This document shows, in pieces, positions 30,507 through 42,446 of a stretch of 64,000 nt of DNA. Below the pieces are notes generated by a model. The model was not told where the DNA came from. It made no database searches and was given only the letters and a program-made list of their open reading frames with translations. This stretch comes from a bacterium (GTDB lineage Bacteria; SAR324; NAC60-12). The DNA is taken from assembly GCA_965233585.1 (NCBI GenBank), contig CBDDTI010000747.1:320001-384000 (forward strand), read 5' to 3'. The position numbers and the translations under genes are program-made. How positions within the stretch are numbered: the first letter of the stretch is position 1; each line of letters opens with the position of its first letter.

Positions 30507-31610
30507 TTAAAAAGAAGCATCAAAAAGATGTCCACGGTCTGGTTTGAACTGAACCCAAACTGACTGCCCAACGGTGAAATTTTCTTTGGTGTCGGCAAAT
30601 CCCCCAAAAAACACGCCTCCCACTTCAAAGTAAATCAGCAACTTGTCCCCATCAGACGCATGTTCAATGGTGTAGATTGGAAGTGAGACCGCATGGTTGA
30701 CCTGTTGTACAGAAACGGCTACCTCACTTGGTCTGACTCCCAAACGACATTGTGTCTGACCTGTCTCCAAACGTTGGTTTGCACTGAGTTGAAGGGTTTC
30801 ATTCAATGGAAATTGAATAGCATCTACTTCAAACTTCAAATCACTTTCAATTTGGATAATCTGACCATCAACCAAGTTCATAGCAGGGTCTCCCAACAAA
30901 TGCCCGACATAATCGGTAGCAGGTTGGTGATAAATTGTTCTAGGCGTGTCAATTTGCAAAACACGTCCTTCATTCAAAATCAAAATACGGTCAGAAAGTC
31001 CAAGAGCTTCACGGAAGTCATGGGTGACGTAAACGATGGTTGCCCCCAAGTTTTTAGCCATTGCTTTCAAATTTGCACGGGCAATCGTTCTTAAATTGGC
31101 GTCAAGGTGAGCAATAGGTTCATCAAGAAGGTAAACATTGGCTTCTCGCACCAAGCAACGTGCCAATGACACCCTTTGCTTTTGCCCTCCTGATAATTGC
31201 ACAGGCATTCGTTCCAACAGATGCCCGATTCCTAATTCATCAGCAACCCATTGCACCTTTTTTTGAATTTCAGAATCATTGATTTTTTTAGATTTAGGAG
31301 AACGTAGAGGAAAAGCGATATTCTCACCAACAGTCAGGTGAGGGTATAGGGCATAATTTTCAAAAGCCATAGCAATATTGCGTTCTTGAATCCCAACACC
31401 TTCTAAAGGTTGACCCTTGATAGAAATCTGCCCTGAGTATCCTTTTTTGATGCCTGCAATGCACTCAAGAATCGTTGTTTTGCCTGCACCAGAGGGACCG
31501 AACAAGGTAAAAAACTCTCCTTCTTGACATGTAAAAGAAACTTCTTTGATTGCTTCTAAGCTGCCAAAAGATTTAGAGACATTTTCTAATTTTAAGAGAC
31601 TCATTTTCAA
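30507..31610 (-). CDS. Second sugar ABC transporter ATPase (start likely 31604, MSLLK)
   Basis: GPSGAGKT, LSGGQ, LLDEP. Confidence 0.93.
   Translation of the reverse strand: MKMSLLKLENVSKSFGSLEAIKEVSFTCQEGEFFTLFGPSGAGKTTILECIAGIKKGYSGQISIKGQPLEGVGIQERNIAMAFENYALYPHLTVGENIAFPLRSPKSKKINDSEIQKKVQWVADELGIGHLLERMPVQLSGGQKQRVSLARCLVREANVYLLDEPIAHLDANLRTIARANLKAMAKNLGATIVYVTHDFREALGLSDRILILNEGRVLQIDTPRTIYHQPATDYVGHLLGDPAMNLVDGQIIQIESDLKFEVDAIQFPLNETLQLSANQRLETGQTQCRLGVRPSEVAVSVQQVNHAVSLPIYTIEHASDGDKLLIYFEVGGVFFGGFADTKENFTVGQSVWVQFKPDRGHLFDASF
31565..31606. repeat. 42-bp direct repeat, copy 1 (5' end of the ABC ATPase gene)
   Basis: CAAAAGATTTAGAGACATTTTCTAATTTTAAGAGACTCATTT; 40/42 identical to 33673-33714. 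Confidence 0.92.
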
Positions 31611-31655
31611 TCAATTCTTACAGATTGGATTTGTTGTTATTCTAAGGTCAAAACA

Positions 31656-32882
31656 TTATTTTTCACAAACTACAATATATTCTTGTGTCATTGTGCTTAG
31701 TCTTTGATTTTTTTGATTGGTTGGTGAATTTTGAAGAGGCATAGATTTGTTACCGAGTAATCTTTCATAAGTGAAAAGATGAGTAAAATTTTGTTCTTCA
31801 AACTTTTCAGCAATAAATTGATCTGTTGGCAATTGAATATTTTTGACTCTTCTATTTCCAACAACATAAATGATTGTTCCTCCTTTTTTAACACTATCAG
31901 CAATTTTATAAATTGATTGTTCTAAATCGTGATAAAACGAAGAAACCTCTAAAGCTCTTTTATAAGATTCTTTTGAAATATCACTTATGGAAGAAGCAAT
32001 CATTCCTTTAGTGTATAAAGTTTTTGTTGTTCTACCTCCCATAAGTAAGCTATCAATCTTACGAGAATAATCAATTCCTAACCATTGATTAGAAAACATA
32101 GAAAATTGACCATAAGCAACCGTGGTTTTACTATCTCCATAAGGTGGGCTTGTTAAAACCACATCATAATACTTTTTTCTCTTTTTGAAAGAATGAGAAT
32201 CAACATCTATTTTTACAGCAGATAAGCGAGGCAAGTAATATTTTTGATAGATTTCAATCGTTCTATTCAATTTATCAAAGTACAGACCAAAAACATCTGG
32301 ATTAAAATTCAAAATATCTTCCGTTTTCATTTTATAAAGTTTAAACTCATGATTTCTTGTATAAGAACATTCACGAATAGTTTCAGAAAAAGGAATTAAA
32401 AAAAGTCTTCTTAAGTCTTTATTTTTTATCTTATTTAAGAAATATTTTATCACTGAAAGATTTTTTAAAGCTATATCAGAAAACCAAAAATTTATATTAT
32501 AAAAATTTGGAATTTCTAAATTCTTTAAATTTTCTTCTTTTTTAATAAATTCATAAATAGAATTTCTTAGATTTTGCTTACAAGAAGTTACTTTTAATGA
32601 ATCCACTTTTGTAAATTTTGCTCTTGAGATTAAAACAGCTAAAGGATTGATATCAAATCCATCCATTTCTGAAATTCCACAATCCAAACCAGCAATGAAA
32701 GAAGAACCAGAGCCACAATAAGGATCAAGCAATTTTCCACCTTTTATCTCTAATTCTTTCAAAATTTCAATTCCTATTTGGGGAAGCATGGTTGCTGGAT
32801 ATTTATGTAAATTGGGATACACACTTGCATAAGATTGTCCGATAAAGTCATACTTATCATTTCTTCTTACTGGATATTTCAT
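31656..32882 (-). CDS. N4-cytosine DNA methyltransferase of a type II R-M system
   Basis: LDPYCGSG (motif I) before TSPPY (motif IV); HKYPA; very AT-rich. Confidence 0.9.
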   Translation of the reverse strand: MKYPVRRNDKYDFIGQSYASVYPNLHKYPATMLPQIGIEILKELEIKGGKLLDPYCGSGSSFIAGLDCGISEMDGFDINPLAVLISRAKFTKVDSLKVTSCKQNLRNSIYEFIKKEENLKNLEIPNFYNINFWFSDIALKNLSVIKYFLNKIKNKDLRRLFLIPFSETIRECSYTRNHEFKLYKMKTEDILNFNPDVFGLYFDKLNRTIEIYQKYYLPRLSAVKIDVDSHSFKKRKKYYDVVLTSPPYGDSKTTVAYGQFSMFSNQWLGIDYSRKIDSLLMGGRTTKTLYTKGMIASSISDISKESYKRALEVSSFYHDLEQSIYKIADSVKKGGTIIYVVGNRRVKNIQLPTDQFIAEKFEEQNFTHLFTYERLLGNKSMPLQNSPTNQKNQRLSTMTQEYIVVCEK

Positions 32883-33646
32883 AATGTTTGGTTGACAAAA
32901 TCTACTAAATTAGATAGAGAAGAAATAAAGTTTTTGTTTATAGGCTTAGCTATAAATGATTTATCAAAAAACTTAAACATTCCTCTATGTTGAGGACTAT
33001 CAATTTCATCATAAAAATTAACTGTAGCAAAACATATAACTGGCATTTTACTTGGATTATAAGAAATATTGTATTTCTTTTTAATAGGATTTTCAGTATT
33101 TGCAATTTCCATTAAAAGTTTCCACTTATATGTCTGACCAGCTCTTTCACGAAGTGAAGTTTTAAGAGATAAAATCATACATTCATCTATTTCTTCATTT
33201 TTCTTTTTAGTAAAAATGATCAAATCACAATCTGGTTTCTGTGTCTCTCCATCTACATTGATAGTGGATATACTGTCAAAACCTTTTACTTGAGATTTTT
33301 GACTTGTAATAAAAATATGCGGTTTGATATTTTCTATAATTTTATTATTTAAAAAAATATAGATAATAGTATTTGAAAAAGTATTTCCAGCAATTGATTT
33401 CATTGCTTGACGAACATCTTTTATTTCTCCTTTCCTTTTTCTTTCTTCTAAAATTTGTTCCACGTCATCTTTAGCTTCAACTAAAATAGTATAAATTTCA
33501 TTAAATACTTCTTGCCATGCTTTTTTAAGATTTTGGTTTGAATCTACAAAATCATTTATTCTTTTTAAAGTCGGTGGCATATAGAAAGATTTTTCAATAT
33601 CTAAAAGAATCTTTTGTTCTTGAGTATTTAATTCGTATTTATTCAT
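32879..33646 (-). CDS. Type II restriction endonuclease of the CCGG-core family (BsaWI/Cfr10I-like)
   Basis: KPDCDL...SLKTSLRERAGQ matches the PD..KxxxRER signature; 4-bp overlap with the MTase. Confidence 0.85.
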   Translation of the reverse strand: MNKYELNTQEQKILLDIEKSFYMPPTLKRINDFVDSNQNLKKAWQEVFNEIYTILVEAKDDVEQILEERKRKGEIKDVRQAMKSIAGNTFSNTIIYIFLNNKIIENIKPHIFITSQKSQVKGFDSISTINVDGETQKPDCDLIIFTKKKNEEIDECMILSLKTSLRERAGQTYKWKLLMEIANTENPIKKKYNISYNPSKMPVICFATVNFYDEIDSPQHRGMFKFFDKSFIAKPINKNFISSLSNLVDFVNQTL

Positions 33647-33672
33647 GCTTTAAACAAATGCTTTAAAAATAT

Positions 33673-33714
33673 CAAAAGATTTAGAGACATTTTCTAATTT
33701 CAAGAGACTTATTT
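33673..33714. repeat. 42-bp direct repeat, copy 2 (start codon reads ATA instead of ATG)
   Basis: CAAAAGATTTAGAGACATTTTCTAATTTCAAGAGACTTATTT. Confidence 0.92.
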
Positions 33715-33733
33715 GGTATTCCTATTGACGTTC

Positions 33734-33913
33734 CTATGTTTTTTTGAAAAAGAACAATCGGTTTGCCCAGAGAACGAAGCTAATCAGGACGATAAAGGCA
33801 AAAGCAGAACCAGCATAAAAGTTGATATATTCTTCAAGTCCTCCGAGTAATAAAAAGTGGATTCCAATAAAAATCAGCATTCCCCAAAAAATTCTGTCCA
33901 TTAAATCTAGCAT
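33734..33913 (-). CDS. Small membrane protein of the ABC operon (DUF2160/GlpU-like), missing from the ORF track
   Basis: 59 aa MLDLMDRIFWGMLIFIGIHFLLLGGLEEYINFYAGSAFAFIVLISFVLWANRLFFFKKT; starts 1 nt after the permease stop; two hydrophobic segments. Confidence 0.75.
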   Translation of the reverse strand: MLDLMDRIFWGMLIFIGIHFLLLGGLEEYINFYAGSAFAFIVLISFVLWANRLFFFKKT

Positions 33914-33914
33914 G

Positions 33915-34757
33915 TTATCCTTTCACTGCACCAAAGGTGAGACCGCGAATGATATGTTTTTGCATCAGCCATGCGGCAAGAAGTGTTGGTAAAACGGCAA
34001 TACCCATCATGGCAGCCATAGGACCCCACTGGATTTCAACAGAACCCCAAAAGGTGGATTGCCCAACAGAAATGGTTCTGGCATTGGTGCGTGTGAATAA
34101 AAAAGCGAATAAAAACTCGTTCCATGACCAGATTAAGCAAAACATGGTCGTGATAGCAATGCCCGGTTTGATTAAAGGAAACACGATTTTACGCAAGATA
34201 GACAGGCGATCATAGCCGTCTAGCATAGCAGCATGTTCCAAACTTTCTGGAATTTCACGGAAGAAGCCATACAGCAGAAAAGTTGCAAAACTCATGTTGA
34301 AGTAAACATACAACAAAATCAGTCCCAAATGTGTATCTAATAGATTTAATTCTCTAAACAATAAGAAAAATGGAATTGCTGCGACGACACCAGGGAACAT
34401 TCGTGTAGAAATTGTGATGAATAAAATATGCCCATTGCCTGTGTTGAATCTTGCAAAACTGTATGCGGCAGGAATGGAAACCAGCATCACAAAAAGAGTA
34501 CTGATGACACTGATGATCAATGAATTGACCAATTCCGTCAAAGAAGGTCTGACATTGATGAGGTAGTCAAAGTTCTCCAAAGTCGGCATGAAGACAAAAG
34601 GATTTTCTGCAAAGATGTCATCAGGTGCTTTCAGAGCAGTGACATAAATCCAAAAGACAGGAAAAACAAAGACAAAGACCATCAAACCGACTGACAGCCA
34701 AAATAAAAACTTTTTCATGCGTTCGTTTGATTCAGGCTTGATCCATGGCTTTGACAA
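33915..34757 (-). CDS. Carbohydrate ABC permease (MalG-like)
   Basis: EHAAMLDG (EAA loop), WNEFLFA, IRGLTFGAVKG. Confidence 0.93.
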   Translation of the reverse strand: MSKPWIKPESNERMKKFLFWLSVGLMVFVFVFPVFWIYVTALKAPDDIFAENPFVFMPTLENFDYLINVRPSLTELVNSLIISVISTLFVMLVSIPAAYSFARFNTGNGHILFITISTRMFPGVVAAIPFFLLFRELNLLDTHLGLILLYVYFNMSFATFLLYGFFREIPESLEHAAMLDGYDRLSILRKIVFPLIKPGIAITTMFCLIWSWNEFLFAFLFTRTNARTISVGQSTFWGSVEIQWGPMAAMMGIAVLPTLLAAWLMQKHIIRGLTFGAVKG

Positions 34758-35619
34758 GTTGTTTAAACATCAACGACCCCACAATCAAGGTCATGTACAA
34801 GGCAAATAAGGCATACGCTGCACCTTGACCAATGTCAAAAAAGACAAAAGAGATGCGATAAATCATCCAATCCAATAATTCTGTCCCCAATCCACCACGT
34901 GTTGTTCCATAAAGGGGGTCAAACAACCGCATCAACCACATTGTCCTTAACAGAATAATAATGATGATGAGAGGCTTGAGCATTGGTAACTGCAAACGAA
35001 AGAAGACCCTGATGGCTGAAGCACCGTCTATTTGTGCCGCTTCAAATTGGTCACGTGGCAGTCCCCTTAATCCTGCAAGAATGACAAAAATAGAAAAAGG
35101 CAACCACTGCCAGACTGTAATAAAAACGATAGTATTCAACGCTAAATTAGGGTCTGACAGAAAAGGCACTGCTTGAAAACCCAACCACGTCAAAACCGTA
35201 TTGACGACACCAAACTGAATATGAAGCATGTAATTCCACATCAGCGACATGGACAAAGGAGAGATGAGTAAAGAAATCAAACACAATCCACGCACCAATC
35301 CCTGCCCATAAAAATTACGATTGAGCAACAGGGCAAAACCCATTCCCAGCACTAGCTCAATGATAATACAGACTACCAAAACGTAAATCGTGTTACCCAA
35401 CGCCTTCCAAAACACATCATCTTGCAGAATATCACGATAATTCTCCAGACCAATAAATTCAGGCTCGCCCCGCATGACATAGTCCGTGAAGGACATGTAC
35501 AAGCTATAAAGAGTAGGATAAAGCATGAAACAGATTAAAAACACCACCATCGGCGCAATTAAAATCCATTTCATCACCCGATCGTCATTGAAGAACGAAA
35601 CGTGTCTTTGCTCAAACAT
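34732..35619 (-). CDS. Carbohydrate ABC permease (MalF-like)
   Basis: FIGLENY, WQWLPF, EAAQIDGA. Confidence 0.93.
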   Translation of the reverse strand: MFEQRHVSFFNDDRVMKWILIAPMVVFLICFMLYPTLYSLYMSFTDYVMRGEPEFIGLENYRDILQDDVFWKALGNTIYVLVVCIIIELVLGMGFALLLNRNFYGQGLVRGLCLISLLISPLSMSLMWNYMLHIQFGVVNTVLTWLGFQAVPFLSDPNLALNTIVFITVWQWLPFSIFVILAGLRGLPRDQFEAAQIDGASAIRVFFRLQLPMLKPLIIIIILLRTMWLMRLFDPLYGTTRGGLGTELLDWMIYRISFVFFDIGQGAAYALFALYMTLIVGSLMFKQLVKAMDQA

Positions 35620-35689
35620 AAAGGTTCATTGAGAAATTGCAAAAGAGAAGGTCAAGGTGCTATTGATCTAGCACCCCGATTATTAACTC

Positions 35690-37165
35690 TCAACGTTGAG
35701 CAGGCAAATCTCCAAACTTCCTTTGGAGCTTTCTAAAGGATTTTTCCCACGCCTTCAAACTTTCTTCTGGGGTCGTTTCTCCGATGGCATTTTCATGTCC
35801 AATGATGGTCATTTGCTCATAGAGTTTTCCAAAAGCGGAGCTGTTGAAGTGCAGATAACCATTCACATCTTGATGTTGAACCTGCCATTGCTCAAGCGTG
35901 GGCTGAATCCAACCATAGCTTTTGTAATTATTTTCAATGGTTTTATCAGGCTCACTCAAAGCTGTTGAACTAGTTCCAGCCCAGCCTCCATCAATCATTT
36001 CTTTTTGAGTCTTGTAAGACCCAATGTACTTAAGCAACCAATACGTTGCCTCAGGGTTAGGACTATCTAAACTTGGTGCAAAGTGAAAAGCACCGGTATA
36101 AGGACGTTCGCCCACCACAGGAGCGGCAGCGGCTTTTGCCCCTGCGACTTCCAGCTTCACATCAGAAGCCCAGTTCCACAATCCGTTGTACATCAAAGGA
36201 ATGATAGCAGTTTTGCCTTCTACAAATTGAGCAGTAGCAAAATCCCAAAACGCATTAGATGACCCAGGAGGAGAAAATTGCATCATGTCTTGATAGTAAG
36301 CAAATGCCCACTTTAGGGTGTCTCGGTCTTTTTTGGTGATTTTAAAACCAACAACCTTGCCATTTTCCCTGACAGAAGTTGCCCAGTGTGCGTTTTTGCT
36401 CCAAATCATTGCAGCCAATTCATCTTGAACATGAGGGAAACGTCCTGCCATCAGAGACACACCATAAAAATCATGTTTCAGTGTTTCTCCTTTCAGCTTC
36501 TCTCCTTTTTGACGAGTAAAAAACTCTGCTTGGTCTCTTAACTGCTCCCAAGTTTTGGCAGGGTAGAGATTGTAGCCATACTTGGCTCTAAATGCTTTTC
36601 TCTCATCAGGGTTTGTAAATAAATCTTCACGGTAGATAGAAACCATCGTATAGGTGTAATAAGGCATACCCATCAGTTTTCCCTCTCGTGTTGAGGACAT
36701 TCTCAACAAGCCGGGGTCAATGCCGTCTAGCACCTTTTGAATCCCCGCACGTCCTTCAGGGTCATACTTTTCTGCAAGGTCATAAATGGGGTATAAGTAA
36801 TTTTGCCACTCATTTGTCCAAGACGTTTCAGTAATGACCACATCATACGCCCCTGTTCGTCCTTGCAACTCCACCACCTCCTTAGAGTAAATGGTTGCAA
36901 AAACCATAGATTCAGAAGTGACGGGAACACCTGTTGCCTCTGAAAAACGTTTGAGGTAAGTCAGAATGAGGTCAGCTGACCCCCCTGCCTCCAGTGCGAC
37001 GTGAATAGGTTCTTTGTTCTTGATTTCTGGAATATCTTCCAACGTGAAGCCATCAGCAGCATAAGCCATACTTGCAACGAACGAGAAAGCAACTAAACTG
37101 CTGACAGATTTGATTAAGTTTTGCAAACGATTGAAATAATAATGCTTGTACACAAAGTTCTCCAT
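35690..37165 (-). CDS. Carbohydrate ABC transporter solute-binding protein
   Basis: Signal peptide ending AYA; YDVV, YREDLF, PAKTWEQLRDQAEFF; first gene of the operon. Confidence 0.88.
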   Translation of the reverse strand: MENFVYKHYYFNRLQNLIKSVSSLVAFSFVASMAYAADGFTLEDIPEIKNKEPIHVALEAGGSADLILTYLKRFSEATGVPVTSESMVFATIYSKEVVELQGRTGAYDVVITETSWTNEWQNYLYPIYDLAEKYDPEGRAGIQKVLDGIDPGLLRMSSTREGKLMGMPYYTYTMVSIYREDLFTNPDERKAFRAKYGYNLYPAKTWEQLRDQAEFFTRQKGEKLKGETLKHDFYGVSLMAGRFPHVQDELAAMIWSKNAHWATSVRENGKVVGFKITKKDRDTLKWAFAYYQDMMQFSPPGSSNAFWDFATAQFVEGKTAIIPLMYNGLWNWASDVKLEVAGAKAAAAPVVGERPYTGAFHFAPSLDSPNPEATYWLLKYIGSYKTQKEMIDGGWAGTSSTALSEPDKTIENNYKSYGWIQPTLEQWQVQHQDVNGYLHFNSSAFGKLYEQMTIIGHENAIGETTPEESLKAWEKSFRKLQRKFGDLPAQR

Positions 37166-37252
37166 AAATGAGTTAATGAGATTTTAATAAAATGAATTAG
37201 TTTAGAACGTGGTCGTTTAATGTTTCATAGGCAATTTTTTAAATAGCAAAAA

Positions 37253-37496
37253 AAGATAGCGTTACTATAATTTTTGGATTTTTCTTTGTCAAGAACTATT
37301 TTCAGAAAAAATTAAAAATATTTCAAAAAGCTAAGATTTAAATAGCTAAAACATTGTTTTTTATGATTATCTAAAACATCTATCAAAATAAAATTCTCTT
37401 GATTGAATCTGATTCGGGTGAATTAAGGTTAACTTTTTTAGTAGTATTACTATTTCTTGAAAAAAATCAAATTAAGTAAAACTGGCAAATGTTTTT
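37253..37496. repeat. ~245-bp diverged direct repeat, copy 1 (promoter/operator region)
   Basis: Collinear with 38776-39031 from AAGATAGCGTTACTATAATTTTTGG through AACATCTATCAAAAT, GAATTAAGGTT and GTAGTATTACTAT to GCAAATGTTTTT. Confidence 0.92.
37264..37292 (-). promoter_or_regulatory. Sigma-70 promoter of the ABC operon, overlapped by a putative operator ATAGCGTTACTAT
   Basis: Minus strand TTGACA-17 nt-TATAGT. Confidence 0.75.
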
Positions 37497-38605
37497 TAGA
37501 TGTCATGGTCGGTACGATTTGCAAGCTCAACCGCATCAGCAATATGCACGGTGGATGTAGGAAAAGCAGTTTCTGCCCCGTGATGTGCAATAATTTCTAA
37601 TACCTTGAGCAATACCTTCTCTTTCACCTGATGATACTGCACCCAGTCAGTCGTTTTGGTGAAGGTATAAATAAAAAAATCCAAAGACGACGGGGCAAAG
37701 CTATTAAAATTGACGATGAGTGTTTTATTCTTATCAATGTCCTCGTGTTGCTCTAGCATCTGCCGCACATCTGCCACAATGGTTGCCATTTTGTTTGCAT
37801 CACTGTAACGAATACCAATGGTTTCATAAATTCGTCTATTGAGCATTCGCGAAGGATTTTCTACGGCTATTTGATTAAAAACGGCATTGGGTACATATAG
37901 CGGACGTTGGTCAAATGTACGGATACGAGACAACCGCCAGCCAATATCCTCAATCGTGCCTTCAATTTCTCTATCTGGTGAACGCACCCAATCACCGACT
38001 TTGAAAGGTCTGTCCAAATAAATCATCAAACCGCCAAAGAAGTTAGCCAGTAAATCTTTAGCTGCCAAACCAACAGCCAAGCCACCCACACCGCCAAACG
38101 CCAAAATACCAGAGATGCTATAACCTAACTTTTGCAAAATCACCAAAGATGAGGTAATCAGAACAGAAATCCTCAGCAATTTACCCACAGCCATCACCGT
38201 GGTGGTGTCCATTGGTTTTTTGCTAAATGCTGGATCAATGTACCTAGGTTCTACACGGTGAATGAACCGCACGACAAACCAAGTCAATAGCAAAATAACA
38301 CCAACCTGACGAACAGGCACAGCCGATTTGAGCAAATTAATCTCTGATTGAGCCGCTGCTATTTGAGCCGACAGACTCAAGCCCAACAGCCAAATCATCC
38401 AATGCAGTGGTTTAGCAGCAGCCTCTATCAGCGCATCATCCCATAACGTTTGACTCTGTTTTGCTTGTTGCAATAATTTTATCAATAGATGTTTAACCAA
38501 CAAGGCAGCTATGGTGGTCAACAAAACCAGCACAAACACTTCTATAATCCAAAGCCATTCACTATCTATGAGTTGACTGACCCATTCAGGCAATATCTCG
38601 CTCAC
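37496..38605 (-). CDS. Small-conductance mechanosensitive channel (YnaI-like)
   Basis: AFGGVGGLAVGLAAKDLLANFFGG, DRPFKVGDW, YVPN, FPT. Confidence 0.93.
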   Translation of the reverse strand: MSEILPEWVSQLIDSEWLWIIEVFVLVLLTTIAALLVKHLLIKLLQQAKQSQTLWDDALIEAAAKPLHWMIWLLGLSLSAQIAAAQSEINLLKSAVPVRQVGVILLLTWFVVRFIHRVEPRYIDPAFSKKPMDTTTVMAVGKLLRISVLITSSLVILQKLGYSISGILAFGGVGGLAVGLAAKDLLANFFGGLMIYLDRPFKVGDWVRSPDREIEGTIEDIGWRLSRIRTFDQRPLYVPNAVFNQIAVENPSRMLNRRIYETIGIRYSDANKMATIVADVRQMLEQHEDIDKNKTLIVNFNSFAPSSLDFFIYTFTKTTDWVQYHQVKEKVLLKVLEIIAHHGAETAFPTSTVHIADAVELANRTDHDI

Positions 38606-38775
38606 CGTTCATTAACCTCGCTTGTATTGTTATCATCACACAGCTGCAATGCCCAACAACAGGCTTGCAACCACTGGGAAGATTGCTGTAACTGCTGCCA
38701 ATTCACTGACTTGCGGCTTATCATCTTACTCAAACGTTCGGCTGATTAGGAAGCTACCAAAAACTTCCTCAAATC

Positions 38776-39031
38776 AAGATAGCGTTACTATAATTTTTGG
38801 GTTTTTATTTATCAAGAACTATTTTGAAAAAAATTAAAAAAGATTTAAAAAAGTGATTTTTAAATCCTTAATACATTGTTTTATATGATTTTTATAAACA
38901 TCTATCAAAATCAAATTCTCTTGATTAAATCTGATTTGAGCGAATTAAGGTTGAATGAGATTGGTAGTATTACTATACTTTCCAAAGAATTAAGCAAAGA
39001 ATCAAGTCAGATGAAACTAGCAAATGTTTTT
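38776..39031. repeat. ~255-bp diverged direct repeat, copy 2
   Basis: Matches copy 1; retains TTGATA-17-TATAGT (38787-38815, minus strand) pointing into mscS. Confidence 0.92.
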
Positions 39032-39036
39032 GAGTT

Positions 39037-40257
39037 GTGCCATCATCTGTAACACTTTTTGAATGGAGAAAATCAATGAATGCTCAAATAATGAATGACC
39101 AAATCAACCAACTTCCTTCTGAATCAATTTTGCTGGGTCGTGTGTGGCGTCCTGACGTTGAAGGACCTGCTGTGTGCTTTATGCAAAACAACCAAATCTA
39201 TGACATTACATCGGTTGAAGCCCCCACAATGAGCGATGTCTTGGAAAAGCCTGACCCCGTGGCTTTTGTTCAAGAAAAGCTCTCTCATGCGTCACTTCTG
39301 GGGGAATGGAGTGAGGTTGTCAAAAACAGTTTAGACTCATCAGGAGACTTATCAAAAGTCCATCTGTTAGCCCCTTGTGATTTACAGGCAATCAAAGCCT
39401 GTGGAGTGACCTTTGCCCAATCTATGGTGGAAAGAGTGATAGAAGAGAAAGCATCAGGAGACTTTGCCAAAGCCGAAGCAATCCGAGACCAGCTGACCCA
39501 GTCCATTGGTGAATCCTTGAAAAATGTCAAAGCAGGTTCTCAACAAGCCGCAAAGCTGAAACAAGCCCTGCAAGAACAAGGACTTTGGAGTCAATACCTT
39601 GAAGTTGGAATCGGACCAGATGCTGAAGTGTTCACCAAGAGTCAAGCCATGTCAGCAGTGGGCTTTGGTGCAAAAGTTGGCATTCACCCCATGTCTAACT
39701 GGAACAACCCCGAGCCTGAAGTCGTTTTGGCAGTGTCTTCCAAAGGGAAAATTGTTGGGGCAACTTTGGGTAATGATGTGAATTTACGAGACGTTGAGGG
39801 ACGTTCTGCTTTGCTTTTGGGAAAAGCCAAAGACAACAATGCTTCTTGTGCGATGGGCCCATTAGTCCGATTGTTTGATGAGCATTACACCCTAGATGAT
39901 GTCCGTCATGCTCATTTGGATTTAATCGTTCAAGGTCAAGATGGCTTTATGTTGAAAGGAACATCAACCATGAGTCAAATCAGCCGAGACCCTGAAGAGT
40001 TAGTCAAACAGACGATTGGCGAGCATCATCAGTACCCTGATGGCTTCATGTTGTTCATGGGGACTCTGTTTGCACCCACTCAAGACCGAGACACACAGGG
40101 GCAAGGCTTCACTCACAAAGTCGGTGATGTGGTGTCTATTTCATCGGAAAAACTGGGGACGCTTGTCAACACTGTTGAGCTTTCTACAAAATGCCCTCAA
40201 TGGACTTTTGGCATCAGGGCATTGATGAAAAACCTTGCTCAACGACATTTACTTTAA
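39037..40257 (+). CDS. Fumarylacetoacetate hydrolase family protein, XylX-like (2-keto-3-deoxy-pentonate dehydratase); start probably ~39076-39091
   Basis: DLQAIKACGVTF, SQYLEVGIGPDAEVFTK, WNNPEPE, GNDVNLRDVEGRSALLL. Confidence 0.85.
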   Translation: MPSSVTLFEWRKSMNAQIMNDQINQLPSESILLGRVWRPDVEGPAVCFMQNNQIYDITSVEAPTMSDVLEKPDPVAFVQEKLSHASLLGEWSEVVKNSLDSSGDLSKVHLLAPCDLQAIKACGVTFAQSMVERVIEEKASGDFAKAEAIRDQLTQSIGESLKNVKAGSQQAAKLKQALQEQGLWSQYLEVGIGPDAEVFTKSQAMSAVGFGAKVGIHPMSNWNNPEPEVVLAVSSKGKIVGATLGNDVNLRDVEGRSALLLGKAKDNNASCAMGPLVRLFDEHYTLDDVRHAHLDLIVQGQDGFMLKGTSTMSQISRDPEELVKQTIGEHHQYPDGFMLFMGTLFAPTQDRDTQGQGFTHKVGDVVSISSEKLGTLVNTVELSTKCPQWTFGIRALMKNLAQRHLL

Positions 40258-40297
40258 GGGATAAGAAAAATTGAAAAATTGAAAATAGGATAAATTT

Positions 40298-41254
40298 ATG
40301 AACAAAATTGTTTTTTTAGACCGCAACACGATTGGTCTTTCTGCTAAATTGAATACTCCACATGCACCGCATGAATGGACAACTTATGACAATACTGACC
40401 CAGAACAAGTTGCAGAAAGACTGCAAAATGCAGACATTGCCATCACAAACAAAGTGCCATTAAGAACAGAAACCTTAGCACAACTTCCCCAACTGAAAAT
40501 GATTGCCGTTGCTGCAACAGGTTATGACAATGTGGACATTGAAACCTGTGCCAAACAGGGCATTGTTGTTTCCAATGTACGAGGCTATGCCTTGCATACC
40601 GTGCCAGAACAGACCTTTGCTTTCATTTTTGCGTTAAGAAGACGTTTGATTCACTACCGCCAAGATGTTCTCAATGGAGAATGGCAGAAGTCTGGGCAGG
40701 TGTCTTTTTTTCAACACCCCATTCAAGACTTACACGGACAACGTTTAGGAATTATTGGCGAGGGTGTCATTGGGCAAGAAGTGGCACGTATTGGACAGGC
40801 TTTGGGCATGAAGACCATGTTTGCCTCTCATAAAGGAGTGAAAGGATTGGGACCACTCTACACAGATTGGCAGGAGGTTTTAGAAACCAGTGATGTCATT
40901 ACGATTCATTCACCATTGATGCCTGCAACTAGAAACATGATTGCAGCTGCCGAGTTTCAGATGATGAAAAAACAGCCGTTGCTCATCAATACAGCACGTG
41001 GCGGATTGGTTGATGAAGTGGCACTAATTGAGGCGTTTAAACAAGGTTTAGTTTCAGGAATTGGCTTTGATGTGTTGGCAACAGAACCCCCGCAAAATGA
41101 TAATCCTTTGCTGAGCATTGCAGACCACCCTGACGTCATCATCACTTCTCACGTCGCTTGGGCATCTGACGAAGCCATGCAAACTTTGTGGGACCAAGTG
41201 ATTGAACACATTGACAACTTCATCAAAGGCACACCAAGCAATCAAGTGTTTTAG
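40298..41254 (+). CDS. D-2-hydroxyacid dehydrogenase (glycerate dehydrogenase/HprA-like)
   Basis: ATGYDNVD, GEGVIG, INTARGGLVDE, GFDV..EPP, HVAWAS. Confidence 0.9.
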   Translation: MNKIVFLDRNTIGLSAKLNTPHAPHEWTTYDNTDPEQVAERLQNADIAITNKVPLRTETLAQLPQLKMIAVAATGYDNVDIETCAKQGIVVSNVRGYALHTVPEQTFAFIFALRRRLIHYRQDVLNGEWQKSGQVSFFQHPIQDLHGQRLGIIGEGVIGQEVARIGQALGMKTMFASHKGVKGLGPLYTDWQEVLETSDVITIHSPLMPATRNMIAAAEFQMMKKQPLLINTARGGLVDEVALIEAFKQGLVSGIGFDVLATEPPQNDNPLLSIADHPDVIITSHVAWASDEAMQTLWDQVIEHIDNFIKGTPSNQVF

Positions 41255-41435
41255 CTTTTTTAATGAACAACCTGCTTATTCAATCAAACAACCTCGCTTG
41301 GGCATCTGACGAAGCCATGCAAACTTTGTGGGACCAAGTGATTGAACACATTGACAACTTCATCAAAGGCACACCAAGCAATCAAGTGTTTTAGCTTTTT
41401 TAATGAACAACCTGCTTATTCAATCAAACAACCTC
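41154..41435. repeat. Exact 140-bp tandem duplication
   Basis: 41154-41293 equals 41294-41433; TC microhomology at the junctions. Confidence 0.95.
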
Positions 41436-42446
41436 AAAGGATTGCAATACCTTCTGAATGAAAAGAATCTTCAAAATCAAATAGACCTTGCTTATATTGA
41501 CCCGCCTTATGCAACAGGTTCAAACTTCACAGTGTCAGATACAAGAGCCTCAACGATTAGCAGTTCCAAGACTGGGAAGTTGGCTTATTCAGACAAAATT
41601 GTTGGGATAGATTTTTTAAACTTTCTCAAAGAACGGCTTCTTTTGTTAAAAGAATTATTGTCTGAACAAGGCTCTATTTATCTACACATTGATTACAAAA
41701 TAGGGCATTATGTCAAAGTCCTCATGGACGAAGTGTTTGGCGTCAAAAATTTTAGAAATGACATCACAAGAATCAAATGTAATCCCAAAAACTTTCAAAG
41801 AATTGGCTACGGCAACGTCAAAGATTTGATCTTGTTTTATTCCAAGTCAAGCAAACCCATCTGGAATGAACCCAAAGAACAATACACTGAACAAGACTTC
41901 AAAAAACTCTTTCCTAAAAAAGACAAACAAGGCAGAAGATACACCACCGTGCCAATTCATGCACCGGGAGAGACCCAAAGCGGAAAATCCAGCCAGCCTT
42001 TTCATGGAAGGCTTCCACCAGAAGGCAGGCATTGGAGAACAGATGTAGAAACTTTGGAACAATGGGACAAGGCTGGATTGATTGAGTGGTCAAAGTCTGG
42101 AAATCCTAGAAAAATCATCTTTGCAGATGAGAAAGAGGGCAAACGTGTTCAAGATATTTGGGAGTTTAAAGACCCCCAATATCCGACATATCCCACTGAA
42201 AAAAATGCAGATTTACTAGATTTGATCATTGGCACTTCTTCTAATGAAGAAAGTCTTGTCTTAGACTGCTTTTGTGGCTCTGGAACAACCCTAAAATCTG
42301 CACAATTACACAACAGAAAATGGATAGGCATTGACCAATCTGAACAAGCCATTCAAACCACCATTTCTAAATTACAAACAATTCAAGAAAATCTTCTGAC
42401 TCCTCAAGTTCTCTACGATTTTGTTGACCTTAAGCATCTTAAATGA
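41403..42446 (+). CDS. Orphan beta-class adenine DNA methyltransferase (short Mod-like)
   Basis: YIDPPY near the N-terminus, YPTEK, LDCFCGSGTT near the C-terminus; no adjacent endonuclease recognised. Confidence 0.9.
   Translation: MNNLLIQSNNLKGLQYLLNEKNLQNQIDLAYIDPPYATGSNFTVSDTRASTISSSKTGKLAYSDKIVGIDFLNFLKERLLLLKELLSEQGSIYLHIDYKIGHYVKVLMDEVFGVKNFRNDITRIKCNPKNFQRIGYGNVKDLILFYSKSSKPIWNEPKEQYTEQDFKKLFPKKDKQGRRYTTVPIHAPGETQSGKSSQPFHGRLPPEGRHWRTDVETLEQWDKAGLIEWSKSGNPRKIIFADEKEGKRVQDIWEFKDPQYPTYPTEKNADLLDLIIGTSSNEESLVLDCFCGSGTTLKSAQLHNRKWIGIDQSEQAIQTTISKLQTIQENLLTPQVLYDFVDLKHLK

Follow-up and report, generated by a model that had tools for sequence, protein, structure and literature searches.

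Two probable insertions with long target duplication and a cargo-free tandem duplication in 10 kb of a bacterial genome

Insertion with long target duplication was reportedly described by Nobusato et al. in 2000 for restriction-modification (R-M) gene units. RecA-independent tandem duplication results from misalignment at microhomology, by replication slippage or illegitimate recombination. Passages of Furuta, Abe and Kobayashi (2010, PMC2853133) report insertion accompanied by long target duplication for all R-M types and in many phyla, and a passage of PMC3457768 describes this insertion mode "for R-M systems and other DNAs". Target duplications of transposons are given in the former as typically shorter than 10 bp, and as 19–26 bp in one Mycoplasma IS (PMC2853133).

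We analyzed three long direct repeats in the window, the whole stretch of 64,000 nucleotides to which all positions refer. The first pair (31565–31606 and 33673–33714, 42 bp) is identical at 40 of 42 positions, with a looser 56-bp register at 86%; its BLAST E value was 1.4e-12, and a search of the whole 12-Mb assembly found no third copy. The second pair (37247–37503, 257 bp, and 38770–39038, 269 bp) is 78.5–79% identical with small indels, and BLAST detected no extra copies in the assembly except 30-bp AT-rich chance matches. The third repeat consists of two adjoining units (41154–41293 and 41294–41433) with a period of 140 and an exact run of 142, indicating a perfect tandem duplication whose junction shares two bases (TC). 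All three repeats were confined to their own locus in the assembly and had sharp edges. No integrase, transposase, IS ends, tRNA gene or meaningful terminal inverted repeat was found in or beside the three sites. The repeats, their absence elsewhere in the assembly and the lack of mobile-element genes and ends agree with the sequence-only reading of this DNA, and identities of 100%, 95% and 78.5% fit the different ages that it had deduced from the differing divergence.

The features around the 42-bp repeats are as follows.

30507–31610, minus strand: intact ABC ATPase gene 1, the gene at which the R-M pair was inserted (Pfam ABC_tran, E 3e-34)
31565–31606: R-M repeat copy 1, 42 bp, comprising the live ATPase gene's first 40 nt and 2 nt upstream of it
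31656–32882, minus strand: DNA methyltransferase of the inserted pair, 408 aa (Pfam N6_N4_Mtase, E 4.5e-8; GC 25–29%)
32879–33646, minus strand: BsaWI-like Type II restriction endonuclease, 255 aa (Pfam RE_BsaWI, E 5.5e-13)
33673–33714: R-M repeat copy 2, 42 bp, a dead relic of the ATPase gene start with ATG changed to ATA
33734–33913, minus strand: ORF of the ABC operon for a 59-aa membrane peptide, a marker of the ancestral junction
33915–37165, minus strand: permease 2, permease 1 and putative substrate-binding protein of the host ABC operon (BPD_transp_1 twice)

The likely ATG of ATPase gene 1 is at 31604–31602 (N-terminus MSLLKLENVSKSF), and residues 3–367 align to the relatives L021 and L022. 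The 42-bp repeats duplicate the first 13 codons of this gene. Copy 2 keeps the ancestral position behind the native AGGA ribosome site, about 20 nt beyond the conserved 59-aa ORF's stop, at the place that the real ATPase start occupies in the relatives. This ORF is 68.5% identical in L021 and 64% in L022, and the ATPase start directly follows it in both. The permeases and the putative binding protein (491 aa, no Pfam or NCBIfam match) are kept in the same order with 77–88% identity in both relatives. The endonuclease gene overlaps the methyltransferase start by 4 nt, and the R-M cargo's GC content, 26.7% versus 41.8% in the flanks, is the most negative difference among all 171 two-copy repeat pairs of the assembly.

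We compared this junction with five related metagenome loci, four of which reached it, the fifth being too short. In all four, permease 2 was followed by a gap of 190–253 nt and then by the ATPase gene, without the R-M pair, and tblastn gave no match to either R-M protein in these four loci. Since these relatives are distant (46–88% protein identity, with apparently high GC, as ORFs were open in many frames), the empty site was compared by gene order, not by nucleotide alignment of a single repeat copy. A homologous pair was present in a different gene context in an unrelated MAG (L079), where each protein is 70% identical (287 identical residues in the methyltransferase, 179/255 in the endonuclease). 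Nucleotide identity to that pair, 73%, was restricted to the two ORFs; it is likewise low in GC, and no repeat of at least 30 nt brackets it. Gene order in the relatives thus supports a true insertion of the R-M pair, with 42 bp of the target duplicated. The region itself is not the foreign 10-kb island suggested earlier, because the ABC operon and an aldehyde dehydrogenase are conserved in relatives. The idea that the duplicated segment keeps the host locus working largely reduces to geometry plus survivorship, as one copy remains intact whenever a duplication runs across the end of a gene; for the R-M pair, it is the dead copy, and not the working gene, that has retained the native Shine-Dalgarno sequence.

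The second repeat pair lies on either side of an mscS gene.

37247–37503: mscS repeat copy A, 257 bp, an AT-rich stretch that precedes the ABC operon and at its end overlaps the mscS stop codon
37264–37292, minus strand: best sigma-70-like site in the 10 kb (TTGACA-17-TATAGT, 11/12), facing the ABC operon; a consensus match only
37496–38605, minus strand: mscS-family mechanosensitive channel gene, 369 aa, putative cargo (Pfam MS_channel domains)
38606–38769: unique 164-bp stretch upstream of mscS, of higher GC and without homology to the relatives' flanks, which would have arrived with mscS
38770–39038: mscS repeat copy B, 269 bp, separating mscS from the FAA-hydrolase-family gene
38787–38815, minus strand: second promoter-like site (TTGATA-17-TATAGT, 10/12), facing mscS; a consensus match only
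39037–40257, plus strand: FAA-hydrolase-family gene

The start of the FAA-hydrolase-family gene is probably the ATG at 39077, because relatives align from residue 28–29. The top two promoter-like sites of the 10 kb are paired copies within the mscS repeats, and the second falls in their best-conserved part (D3, 87%). NCBIfam MscS models scored below the cut-off for the channel gene, and its GC is ordinary. It shares 55–56% identity with genes in four sister-family genomes versus 32–36% within its own family; the FAA-family neighbour matched 11 of the 18 own-family genomes (53–62%) and 0 of the 12 sister-family genomes. These kinships and the duplicated promoter region suggest that mscS was probably inserted by the same kind of event as the R-M pair. 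The arrangement may also stem from an older rearrangement, and gene loss could likewise explain the discordant kinship of mscS. In ten family genomes, the FAA-family gene has different surroundings, and L021 and L022 show differences upstream of the binding-protein gene. The proposed search for empty sites was successful for the R-M pair (4/4 junction-reaching loci) and found neither an empty site nor a syntenic relative for mscS.

The third repeat spans a gene boundary.

40298–41254, plus strand: intact D-2-hydroxyacid dehydrogenase gene; the tandem unit includes its last 101 nt
41154–41293: tandem unit 1, 140 bp, running from the 3' end of the dehydrogenase gene across an 8-nt spacer into the methyltransferase gene, of which it holds the first 31 nt
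41263–41394, plus strand: chimeric ORF of 43 codons, in which 11 methyltransferase codons continue in frame into the final 32 dehydrogenase codons
41294–41433: tandem unit 2, 140 bp, identical to unit 1 and holding the live methyltransferase start
41403–42446, plus strand: solitary N6/N4 DNA methyltransferase, 347 aa (Pfam N6_N4_Mtase, E 4e-42)

The methyltransferase gene overlaps the recC start by 4 nt, and among 30 relatives its closest match has 38% identity and lies in a non-syntenic position. Because the tandem takes in one gene's stop codon and the start codon that follows, both genes survive and the chimeric ORF arises. It is an ordinary, fresh, cargo-free duplication with 2-bp microhomology. 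Of the foreign genes said to occupy the repeat junctions, the R-M pair is borne out by its GC and empty site; mscS has ordinary GC, and the tandem brackets nothing.

A genome-wide scan of the bacterial contigs (2.99 Mb) yielded 42 local repeat pairs that are unique; 13 of them, chosen by eye from ORF and Pfam maps, were judged to be duplicated host gene ends or intergenic regions with cargo in between. Examples include an EcoRI-like R-M pair between repeats of 258 bp (93.8%) and an Mrr-type nuclease between repeats of 556 bp (96.8%); cargos other than R-M genes include mscS, a whole ABC operon and an 11-kb ankyrin/caspase block. An N6/N4 methyltransferase occurred in 3 of the 13 cargos versus 0.17 expected (P = 0.00035), and the mean GC shift was −0.045, with none of 5000 random sets equally low. 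IS1 fragments lie inside two of the 13 cases, and for at least two (GntR and DUF547), duplication of a whole gene with later deletion is an equally good reading. Further examples thus exist, some non-R-M and with cargos enriched for low GC, so the scan did not give the empty result that would have spoken against recurrence. The view that the capture route also takes non-R-M cargo gains from these cases and, plausibly, from mscS; the cargo-free tandem lends it nothing.

We consider it reasonably probable (about 0.6) that the 10 kb contain three independent duplications of two kinds, the R-M pair and mscS being insertions with long target duplication and the third a cargo-free tandem. In both insertions, short foreign DNA, trimmed nearly to its reading frames, would have been joined into a host locus, and the target stretch between the two joints (42 bp and about 260 bp) would have been left on both sides of the cargo. 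The BsaWI-like pair would have been placed co-directionally between the small membrane ORF and the first ATPase gene, the downstream repeat copy becoming the live gene start and the upstream copy a relic without ATG. The sister-family-type mscS most likely entered the divergent promoter region, where a duplicate of the leftward promoter of the operon would now precede it. Misaligned joining at the 2-base microhomology would have produced the 140-bp tandem across the gene boundary. As the mechanism of insertion, we infer RecA-independent illegitimate joining, in which strand breaks with a stagger of tens to hundreds of bases may open the target, or a replicating strand may switch templates. In either case, linear DNA would be joined in on the basis of little homology or none, and the interval would be copied twice by repair synthesis; the identical process without captured DNA would give plain tandem duplications.

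Campbell-type integration of a circle, or of an excision product derived from tandem repeats, carrying a copy of the target and entering by one RecA-dependent crossover would give a structurally identical product, with unique host-derived repeats of variable length and sharp ends, and the divergence between copies would then partly be that between donor and recipient, not age. We regard it as doubtful: 42 bp is short for an efficient RecA crossover, the origin of the first cargo-target joint is left unaccounted for, and the R-M pair of the unrelated MAG lies without a trace of an adjoining ATPase gene start. The presence of ComEC and DprA homologues favours it weakly, as these were also matched in 10 and 11 of 14 control genomes, and excision and re-invasion via the repeats are proposed as a life cycle in a passage of Furuta et al. 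(PMC2853133). Still less likely is a tandem duplication that came first, foreign DNA later taking the place of its inner part by homologous exchange with a second genome, or its second copy being mostly deleted, a route discussed in a passage of PMC3457768. Although fresh tandem duplications are common in this genome and the GntR and DUF547 cases fit, with repeat and cargo forming one contiguous gene, the repeat and cargo of the R-M pair are unrelated and very different in GC, and its junction is uninterrupted in relatives. This route also predicts a residual partial tandem beside the cargo, unless insertion fell exactly at the tandem junction, and none is present.

A single lineage-specific capture route for all three sites, with the tandem as a cargo-less product and the 10 kb as a hotspot, also seems unlikely. 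Products of both kinds occur often in this one 3-Mb genome, which has 119 two-copy tandem arrays of period at least 40; seven of 17 inspected tandem duplications were exact, and six of these seven had 0–3 nt of junction microhomology, close to the 0–1 nt shared at the junctions of bracketed repeats. The length ranges overlap (periods of 43–155 bp in six exact tandems, 42–556 bp in bracketed repeats), and the genome is rich in R-M genes and PD-(D/E)XK "transposase"-family genes (24 N6/N4 methyltransferase matches over the cut-off and 12 genes, respectively). However, two of the 13 events fall within 7 kb in 31% of trials (P = 0.31, not significant), so the concentration in 10 kb claimed earlier is within chance. 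Tandems of the 140-bp size have a standard explanation without capture, and three other exact tandems in the bacterial contigs are found at ordinary housekeeping genes or in the space between them rather than at foreign genes, which speaks against counting the cargo-free tandem as the same capture event. No Ku homologue was found in the genome, which is 92% complete, and the same scar is known from many phyla in the account of PMC2853133. An assembly artefact, through mis-joined strain variants or collapsed or expanded repeats, is highly improbable, although the assembly is a mixed one and the tandem unit collapsed to one double-depth piece in de Bruijn contigs (142 nt, about twice the neighbouring depth in three runs). 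Contigs independently rebuilt from four public runs (two samples of one study, possibly the assembly's own source) spanned both R-M junctions and both mscS repeats with no difference; one covered 31000–40522 with 0 differences and a second covered 31000–40123. A piece specific to the tandem junction (41266–41323) was found in two of the four runs, and mis-assembly cannot yield repeat copies diverged to 95% and 78.5%. No cargo-free variant was seen in these contigs, whose runs may be the same material as the assembly.

Two insertions and a tandem, as we propose, compare with known systems as follows. Like transposon or att-tRNA site-specific integration, the inserts are flanked by direct target repeats; unlike them, the three sites have no transposase, terminal inverted repeats, integrase or tRNA. 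Campbell-type single-crossover integration likewise leaves the homologous stretch as flanking direct repeats, but it needs the target sequence on the incoming DNA, of which there is no sign here, with repeats down to 42 bp. The 140-bp event matches RecA-independent tandem duplication in being head to tail and exact, with two shared bases and no spacer, and has no unusual feature. The mode of the R-M insertion is already known and is not a new idea, as passages of PMC2853133 and PMC3457768 describe it. Compared with the cases in those passages of Furuta et al. (PMC2853133), it shares a foreign-GC R and M pair, an insert below 20 kb, a unique target repeat longer than 30 bp, no integrase or transposase, a relative with an empty site and an operon-like cluster as target; solitary nuclease genes and fusions at the repeat occur elsewhere in this genome (Mrr-type, DUF547). 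It differs in that their comparison was of nucleotides within species, whereas the empty site here is seen by gene order in distant relatives. Also unlike those cases, several cargos here are not R-M genes, and the mscS case duplicates a promoter region, which would then serve the cargo.

We searched the region for repeats, and the three long direct duplications that the sequence-only reading had placed here were each recovered with a repeat search, with TRF, and with BLAST of the entire assembly. No third copy of any of the three was detected by BLAST in the 12-Mb assembly. The match between the 42-bp copies had an E-value of 1.4e-12 against this assembly and was therefore not due to chance. 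The repeats and the surrounding genes, as assigned with Pfam and NCBIfam, are as follows.

31565-31606 and 33673-33714: direct repeat of 42 bp around the R-M pair, 40 of 42 bases identical
37247-37503 and 38770-39038: direct repeat of 257 and 269 bp around mscS, 78.5-79% identical
41154-41433: tandem repeat with a period of 140 and an exact run of 142
Minus strand, leftward, 5′ part of the ABC operon: 491-aa protein, two permeases, 59-aa membrane ORF, repeat relic
Minus strand, continuing leftward: BsaWI-like nuclease, methyltransferase, repeat copy forming the live gene start, two MalK-type ATPases, aldehyde dehydrogenase
Right side, minus strand: mscS
Right side, plus strand: FAA-hydrolase-family gene, 2-hydroxyacid dehydrogenase, solitary N6/N4 methyltransferase, recC

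NCBIfam left the R-M proteins and the putative binding protein without names. The latter is the 491-aa protein (35690-37165, in the position of a binding protein), which matched no Pfam or NCBIfam family yet was 77-80% conserved in two metagenome loci. Among the 13 ORFs around the three sites, no integrase, transposase, or tyrosine or serine recombinase was detected with Pfam. No tRNA gene was found in 25000-48000, and no meaningful terminal inverted repeats were found at the three sites. When 15 kb of the region was compared by blastn with 30 relatives, all from other genera, only the FAA-family gene and mscS matched, at 64-70% identity.

The junctions were examined in contigs rebuilt from four public runs, which were made from two samples within a single study and from which the assembly itself may derive. 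Two rebuilt contigs covered 31000-40522 and 31000-40123 with 0 differences, and rebuilt contigs covered both R-M junctions and both mscS repeats in the second sample. Thus, the R-M junctions and the mscS repeats are spanned in read-derived contigs. A 58-nt piece diagnostic of the tandem joint was found in two of the four runs, and the 142-nt tandem unit had approximately 2x depth in three of them. No cargo-free variant was found in the contigs of the four runs, which drop rare variants.

The R-M insert (31607-33672) contains homologues of both R and M genes (RE_BsaWI, E 5.5e-13, and N6_N4_Mtase, E 4.5e-8; Pfam). Its GC content was 26.7% compared with 41.8% in the flanks, the strongest negative shift among the 171 two-copy repeat pairs first screened. 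The repeat occurs only twice in 12 Mb, and no mobility gene lies in or beside the insert. We scanned metagenome contigs with the binding protein and identified five related loci, four of which reach the R-M junction, the fifth being too short. All four showed the order permease 2, a gap of 190-253 nt, ATPase 1, and ATPase 2, followed by the aldehyde dehydrogenase in the two closer loci, and none of the four had a match to the R-M proteins. In these two closer loci (L021 and L022), the gap contains a homologue of the 59-aa ORF (68.5% and 64% identical, respectively), directly followed by the ATPase start. The empty site is defined at the level of gene order and protein because the relatives are distant. 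The proposal that the R-M pair was inserted with target duplication is thus borne out by an uninterrupted target in all four loci that lack the R-M genes. Repeat units and cargos gave no significant blastn match to the metagenome loci, indicating that the repeats themselves are not alignable to relatives.

The repeat copy at the ancestral position is preceded by an AGGA ribosome site, and its ATG is now ATA. The intact ATPase start is 2.1 kb further downstream, on the far side of the cargo, with no comparable ribosome site. Hence, the coding sequence was saved and the native translation signal was left with the relic. The cargo is co-directional with the ABC operon and tightly trimmed, with 26 nt between the repeat and the ATG of the nuclease gene and 49 nt between the methyltransferase stop codon and the repeat. 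No terminator-like site was predicted inside it.

A homologous pair was found in L079, a locus of an unrelated MAG. Each protein was 70% identical, and the nucleotide identity (73% over 1967 nt) was limited to the two ORFs. The neighboring genes differed, an extra methyltransferase gene lay alongside, and GC content was again below that of the surroundings. No repeat of at least 30 nt bracketed this pair. These results indicate that the R-M pair is a travelling unit and that the repeats belong to the target and not to the unit. The L079 genes (L079:2837-6233) form a three-gene system in the order extra N6/N4 methyltransferase, nuclease, and methyltransferase, with 4-nt overlaps between successive genes. 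Of the three genes of this type of BsaWI-like system, just the last two reached the window.

The mscS repeats are copies of the AT-rich region that separates the ABC operon, which runs leftward, from the rightward FAA-family gene. The cargo (37504-38769) comprises the reading frame and 164 nt of unique upstream DNA, and the stop codon falls within the final 8 nt of repeat A. This repeat is also long, unique, and free of mobility genes. The GC content of mscS was ordinary, so the mark of foreignness is its kinship and not its composition. Its best matches, at 55-56% identity, were in four sister-family genomes, compared with 32-36% in its own family. The FAA-family gene beside it was found in 11 of 18 own-family genomes at 53-62% identity and in none of 12 sister-family genomes (E 1e-30 or better).

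The top two sigma-70-like sites of the 10 kb were both copies of one leftward site within the mscS repeats. These sites, TTGACA-17-TATAGT and TTGATA-17-TATAGT, are consensus matches only and are located in the best-conserved part of the repeat; over the whole region, 27 such sites were found versus 27.2 expected, which is no excess. We infer from these sequences that one promoter-like copy may drive the ABC operon and that the other may now drive mscS.

No relative with the same mscS flanks was found among the family genomes, metagenome loci, and sister-family loci. The FAA-family gene is located elsewhere in 10 family genomes, where the gene order around it is not conserved, and these genomes were thus uninformative for the mscS and tandem sites. 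The layout upstream of the binding-protein gene is different in L021 and L022. In five sister-family loci, homology to the mscS region ended inside the gene and hence gave no clue to the donor context. Insertion of mscS with target duplication is the likeliest reading: the unique repeats and, indirectly, the discordant kinship agree with what had been claimed for this site.

In the tandem unit, 101 nt from the 3′ end of the dehydrogenase gene are followed by an 8-nt spacer and by the initial 31 nt of the methyltransferase gene. The copies abut directly, sharing TC at the joint, and each gene retains one intact copy. The joint creates a 43-codon in-frame chimera at 41263-41394, in which 11 methyltransferase codons, in the methyltransferase's own start context, are followed by the last 32 dehydrogenase codons. 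Since no foreign DNA lies between the copies in 41154-41433, the tandem is not a cargo insertion, and its assignment to the same kind of capture event as the other two sites was abandoned. Among 30 relatives, the methyltransferase at this site had its best match at 38% identity, and no close or syntenic homologue was found. The absence of close homologues is usual for such methyltransferase genes and says little.

We then analyzed further tandems with TRF on the bacterial contigs. There were 119 non-overlapping two-copy arrays with a period of 40 or more, and 17 near-perfect arrays were inspected. Seven of the 17 were exact tandems, six of them with 0-3 nt of junction microhomology. Two other exact tandems span the stop codon and the next start of ordinary genes (PTPS/GTPase and glycosyltransferase/FGE-sulfatase), and one more is intergenic. 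Thus, the window tandem is one of a class not tied to foreign genes, and its position at a gene boundary is as survivorship in an 86%-coding genome predicts.

An exact 70-bp tandem, a length that is not a multiple of 3, was observed at C729:32588-32727 (locus L066, C729:29500-34500). It splits a DpnII-like nuclease gene, flanked by two N6/N4 methyltransferase genes, into ORFs of 247 and 141 aa, and it resembles a recent nuclease knock-out.

The genome-wide screen was initially performed with all 747 contigs, and many of the matches on small contigs were LTRs of eukaryote-type retrotransposons. The genes of such elements on several small contigs included copia gag/RVT_2, gypsy RVT_1/RNase H/integrase, Pao peptidase, and tyrosine-recombinase elements; examples are L029 (C233:8300-17000), L035 (C476:1100-10700), L043 (C95:1800-12600), and L026 (C101:1-9200). 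Seven contigs (2.99 Mb) matched the tetranucleotide pattern of the window together with high coding density, and 619 contigs (6.5 Mb) were low-coding. The 12-Mb, 747-contig "genome" is therefore mixed, and marker-based contamination (2%) is blind to this mixture. Because of the LTR contamination, the screen was rerun on the seven bacterial contigs only.

Self-BLAST of these contigs gave 1287 merged local direct pairs, including 42 unique two-copy pairs of 600 bp or less. On the basis of ORF maps and Pfam, 13 of the 42 were judged to enclose cargo, with the repeats being copies of an intergenic region or of the end of a host gene. They include the two events in the window, and all 13 were chosen by eye; the empty site is known for the R-M event of the window only. 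Fourteen of the 42 pairs, mostly below 77% identity, were left unclassified, and the few of these inspected gave no clear call.

Cargos of the repeat pairs judged to bracket an insert on the bacterial contigs beyond the window
EcoRI-like nuclease and methyltransferase: 258-bp repeats (93.8%) that duplicate the beginning of the following gene; spare cargo flanks of only 2 and 19 nt
Mrr-type nuclease: 556-bp repeats (96.8%)
11-kb ankyrin-repeat/caspase-domain/DUF4384 block (L061, C747:1057400-1073200): 277-bp repeats (96.4%) of the 3′ end of a 368-aa gene
Methyltransferase with IS1 fragments
Whole 5.8-kb ABC operon
Pentapeptide-repeat gene
IS1 with a 182-aa ORF
GntR regulator
DUF547 gene
Two AT-rich stretches without ORFs

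The scan thus yielded further bracketed insertions, some with non-R-M cargo. N6/N4 methyltransferase genes, with 24 matches in the genome, occurred in 3 of the 13 cargos versus 0.17 expected (P = 0.00035, permutation). The mean GC shift was -0.045 (10 of 13 negative), a value that none of 5000 random sets reached. Two of the 13 events lay within 7 kb of each other, which occurred by chance in 31% of trials; clustering in one "island" is therefore not significant. Accordingly, the recurrence of bracketed insertions in this genome is real, whereas the 10-kb island part of the earlier claim was not retained.

Several pairs were dropped as paralogues: two each of Type III mod, DegT, RCC1, and binding-protein genes, an internal ABC repeat, three pairs located at C747:647-652 kb, and another three inside the ankyrin block. 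A partial third copy adjoining a tandem PD-(D/E)XK gene pair and one ambiguous TIR-STAND pair were also dropped. Two PD-(D/E)XK genes at C295 from the first, 171-row screen proved to be an 895-bp tandem duplication with no cargo. Twelve genes of this PD-(D/E)XK "transposase" family (PF12784) are present in the bacterial contigs, including that tandem pair (98%; L047, C295:101900-108100), and the 3′ part of another contains an exact 48-bp tandem (L068, C746:594500-597500). At L056 (C747:105900-114500), the position behind a Type III mod gene where res would be expected is taken by a TIR-STAND NTPase gene (851 aa, region GC 26.6%). An 86-bp repeat (79%) joins the mod gene and a downstream 226-aa ORF, a 66-bp tandem lies nearby, and the locus may represent a defence-gene swap inside a Type III system. 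RCC1-repeat and TIR-domain genes are also located elsewhere in the genome, and such eukaryote-like proteins (ankyrin, caspase, RCC1, TIR) suggest a host-associated lifestyle.

Taken together, insertion with target duplication is the right reading for the R-M pair and a probable one for mscS, and for the tandem it is wrong in kind. The repeats are host-derived, 42-556 bp long with lengths that differ by site, and have sharp ends with 0-1 nt shared at the joints. No motif common to the ends of the 13 events was found by inspection. Site-specific integration is not reflected in these features, as no recombinase at an edge and no tRNA or conserved core was found. An IS or transposon does not fit the window sites, which have no transposase or inverted repeats and no fixed repeat length; IS1 fragments occur in two of the 13 genome-wide cases. 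Alternatively, a circle that carried the target stretch may have integrated by a Campbell-type event, a single RecA-dependent crossover; the sole other copy of the R-M pair that was found, in L079, has unrelated flanks. Tandem duplication with later replacement or deletion, which PMC3457768 discusses, may explain some of the genome-wide cases, and for GntR and DUF547, duplication of the whole gene and subsequent deletion is an equally good reading. Ku gave no match in this genome, which is 92% complete, and ComEC and DprA are present here as they are, nearly universally, in the control genomes; thus, none of these decides the mechanism.

A RecA-independent illegitimate event would account for the repeats. 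The target might be opened at two points staggered on opposite strands, or a nascent strand might jump to a foreign template and return upstream of its departure point. Either way, the interval would be synthesised twice, leaving a copy on either side of the cargo, and the same process without foreign DNA would yield a tandem duplication. The scar-rich genome is also rich in fresh tandem duplications, which suggests a common origin. In this lineage, one frequent process of break-and-fill or template switching, independent of RecA, may give rise to both plain tandems and cargo-bearing duplications. Its breaks would be staggered by 40-550 bases, and it would take any short linear DNA and often give the newcomer a gene start or promoter while the host gene is kept. 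We assign this proposal a probability of about 0.2. If true, it would be a general element-free way of wiring foreign genes into operons.

To our knowledge, gene gain with long target duplication is widespread, and we know of no enzyme or mechanism for it. The original H. pylori paper is reportedly that of Nobusato et al. in 2000. In a full-text phrase search, no mechanism was given in the titles or abstracts of the phrase-bearing papers listed from 2012 onwards. Furuta, Abe and Kobayashi (2010, PMC2853133) define the structure by R and M genes in an insert below 20 kb, a repeat longer than 30 bp, and the absence of other mobile elements. Their cases come from several phyla and comprise Type I-IV systems, solitary methyltransferases, and mcrA; the repeats measure from 46 bp to more than 400 bp, and genes fused at the repeat also occur. 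That paper leaves the mechanism open and suggests double-strand breakage. The R-M pair of the window has this structure, with both R and M genes, a 2066-bp insert, a unique 42-bp target repeat, no mobility gene, and an empty site in relatives. For mechanism studies, the present cases offer cargo trimmed to approximately 2-50 nt of the ORFs in two independent R-M insertions, joints with essentially no microhomology, and a duplicated piece that, at mscS, can be a promoter probably now driving the cargo and not just a gene end. The value of this genome thus lies in the promoter-duplicating mscS case, the tight cargo trimming, and the co-occurrence with many fresh tandems. It provides no new category and is a clean, multi-example case of a known mode of gene gain from an uncultured marine-type lineage.
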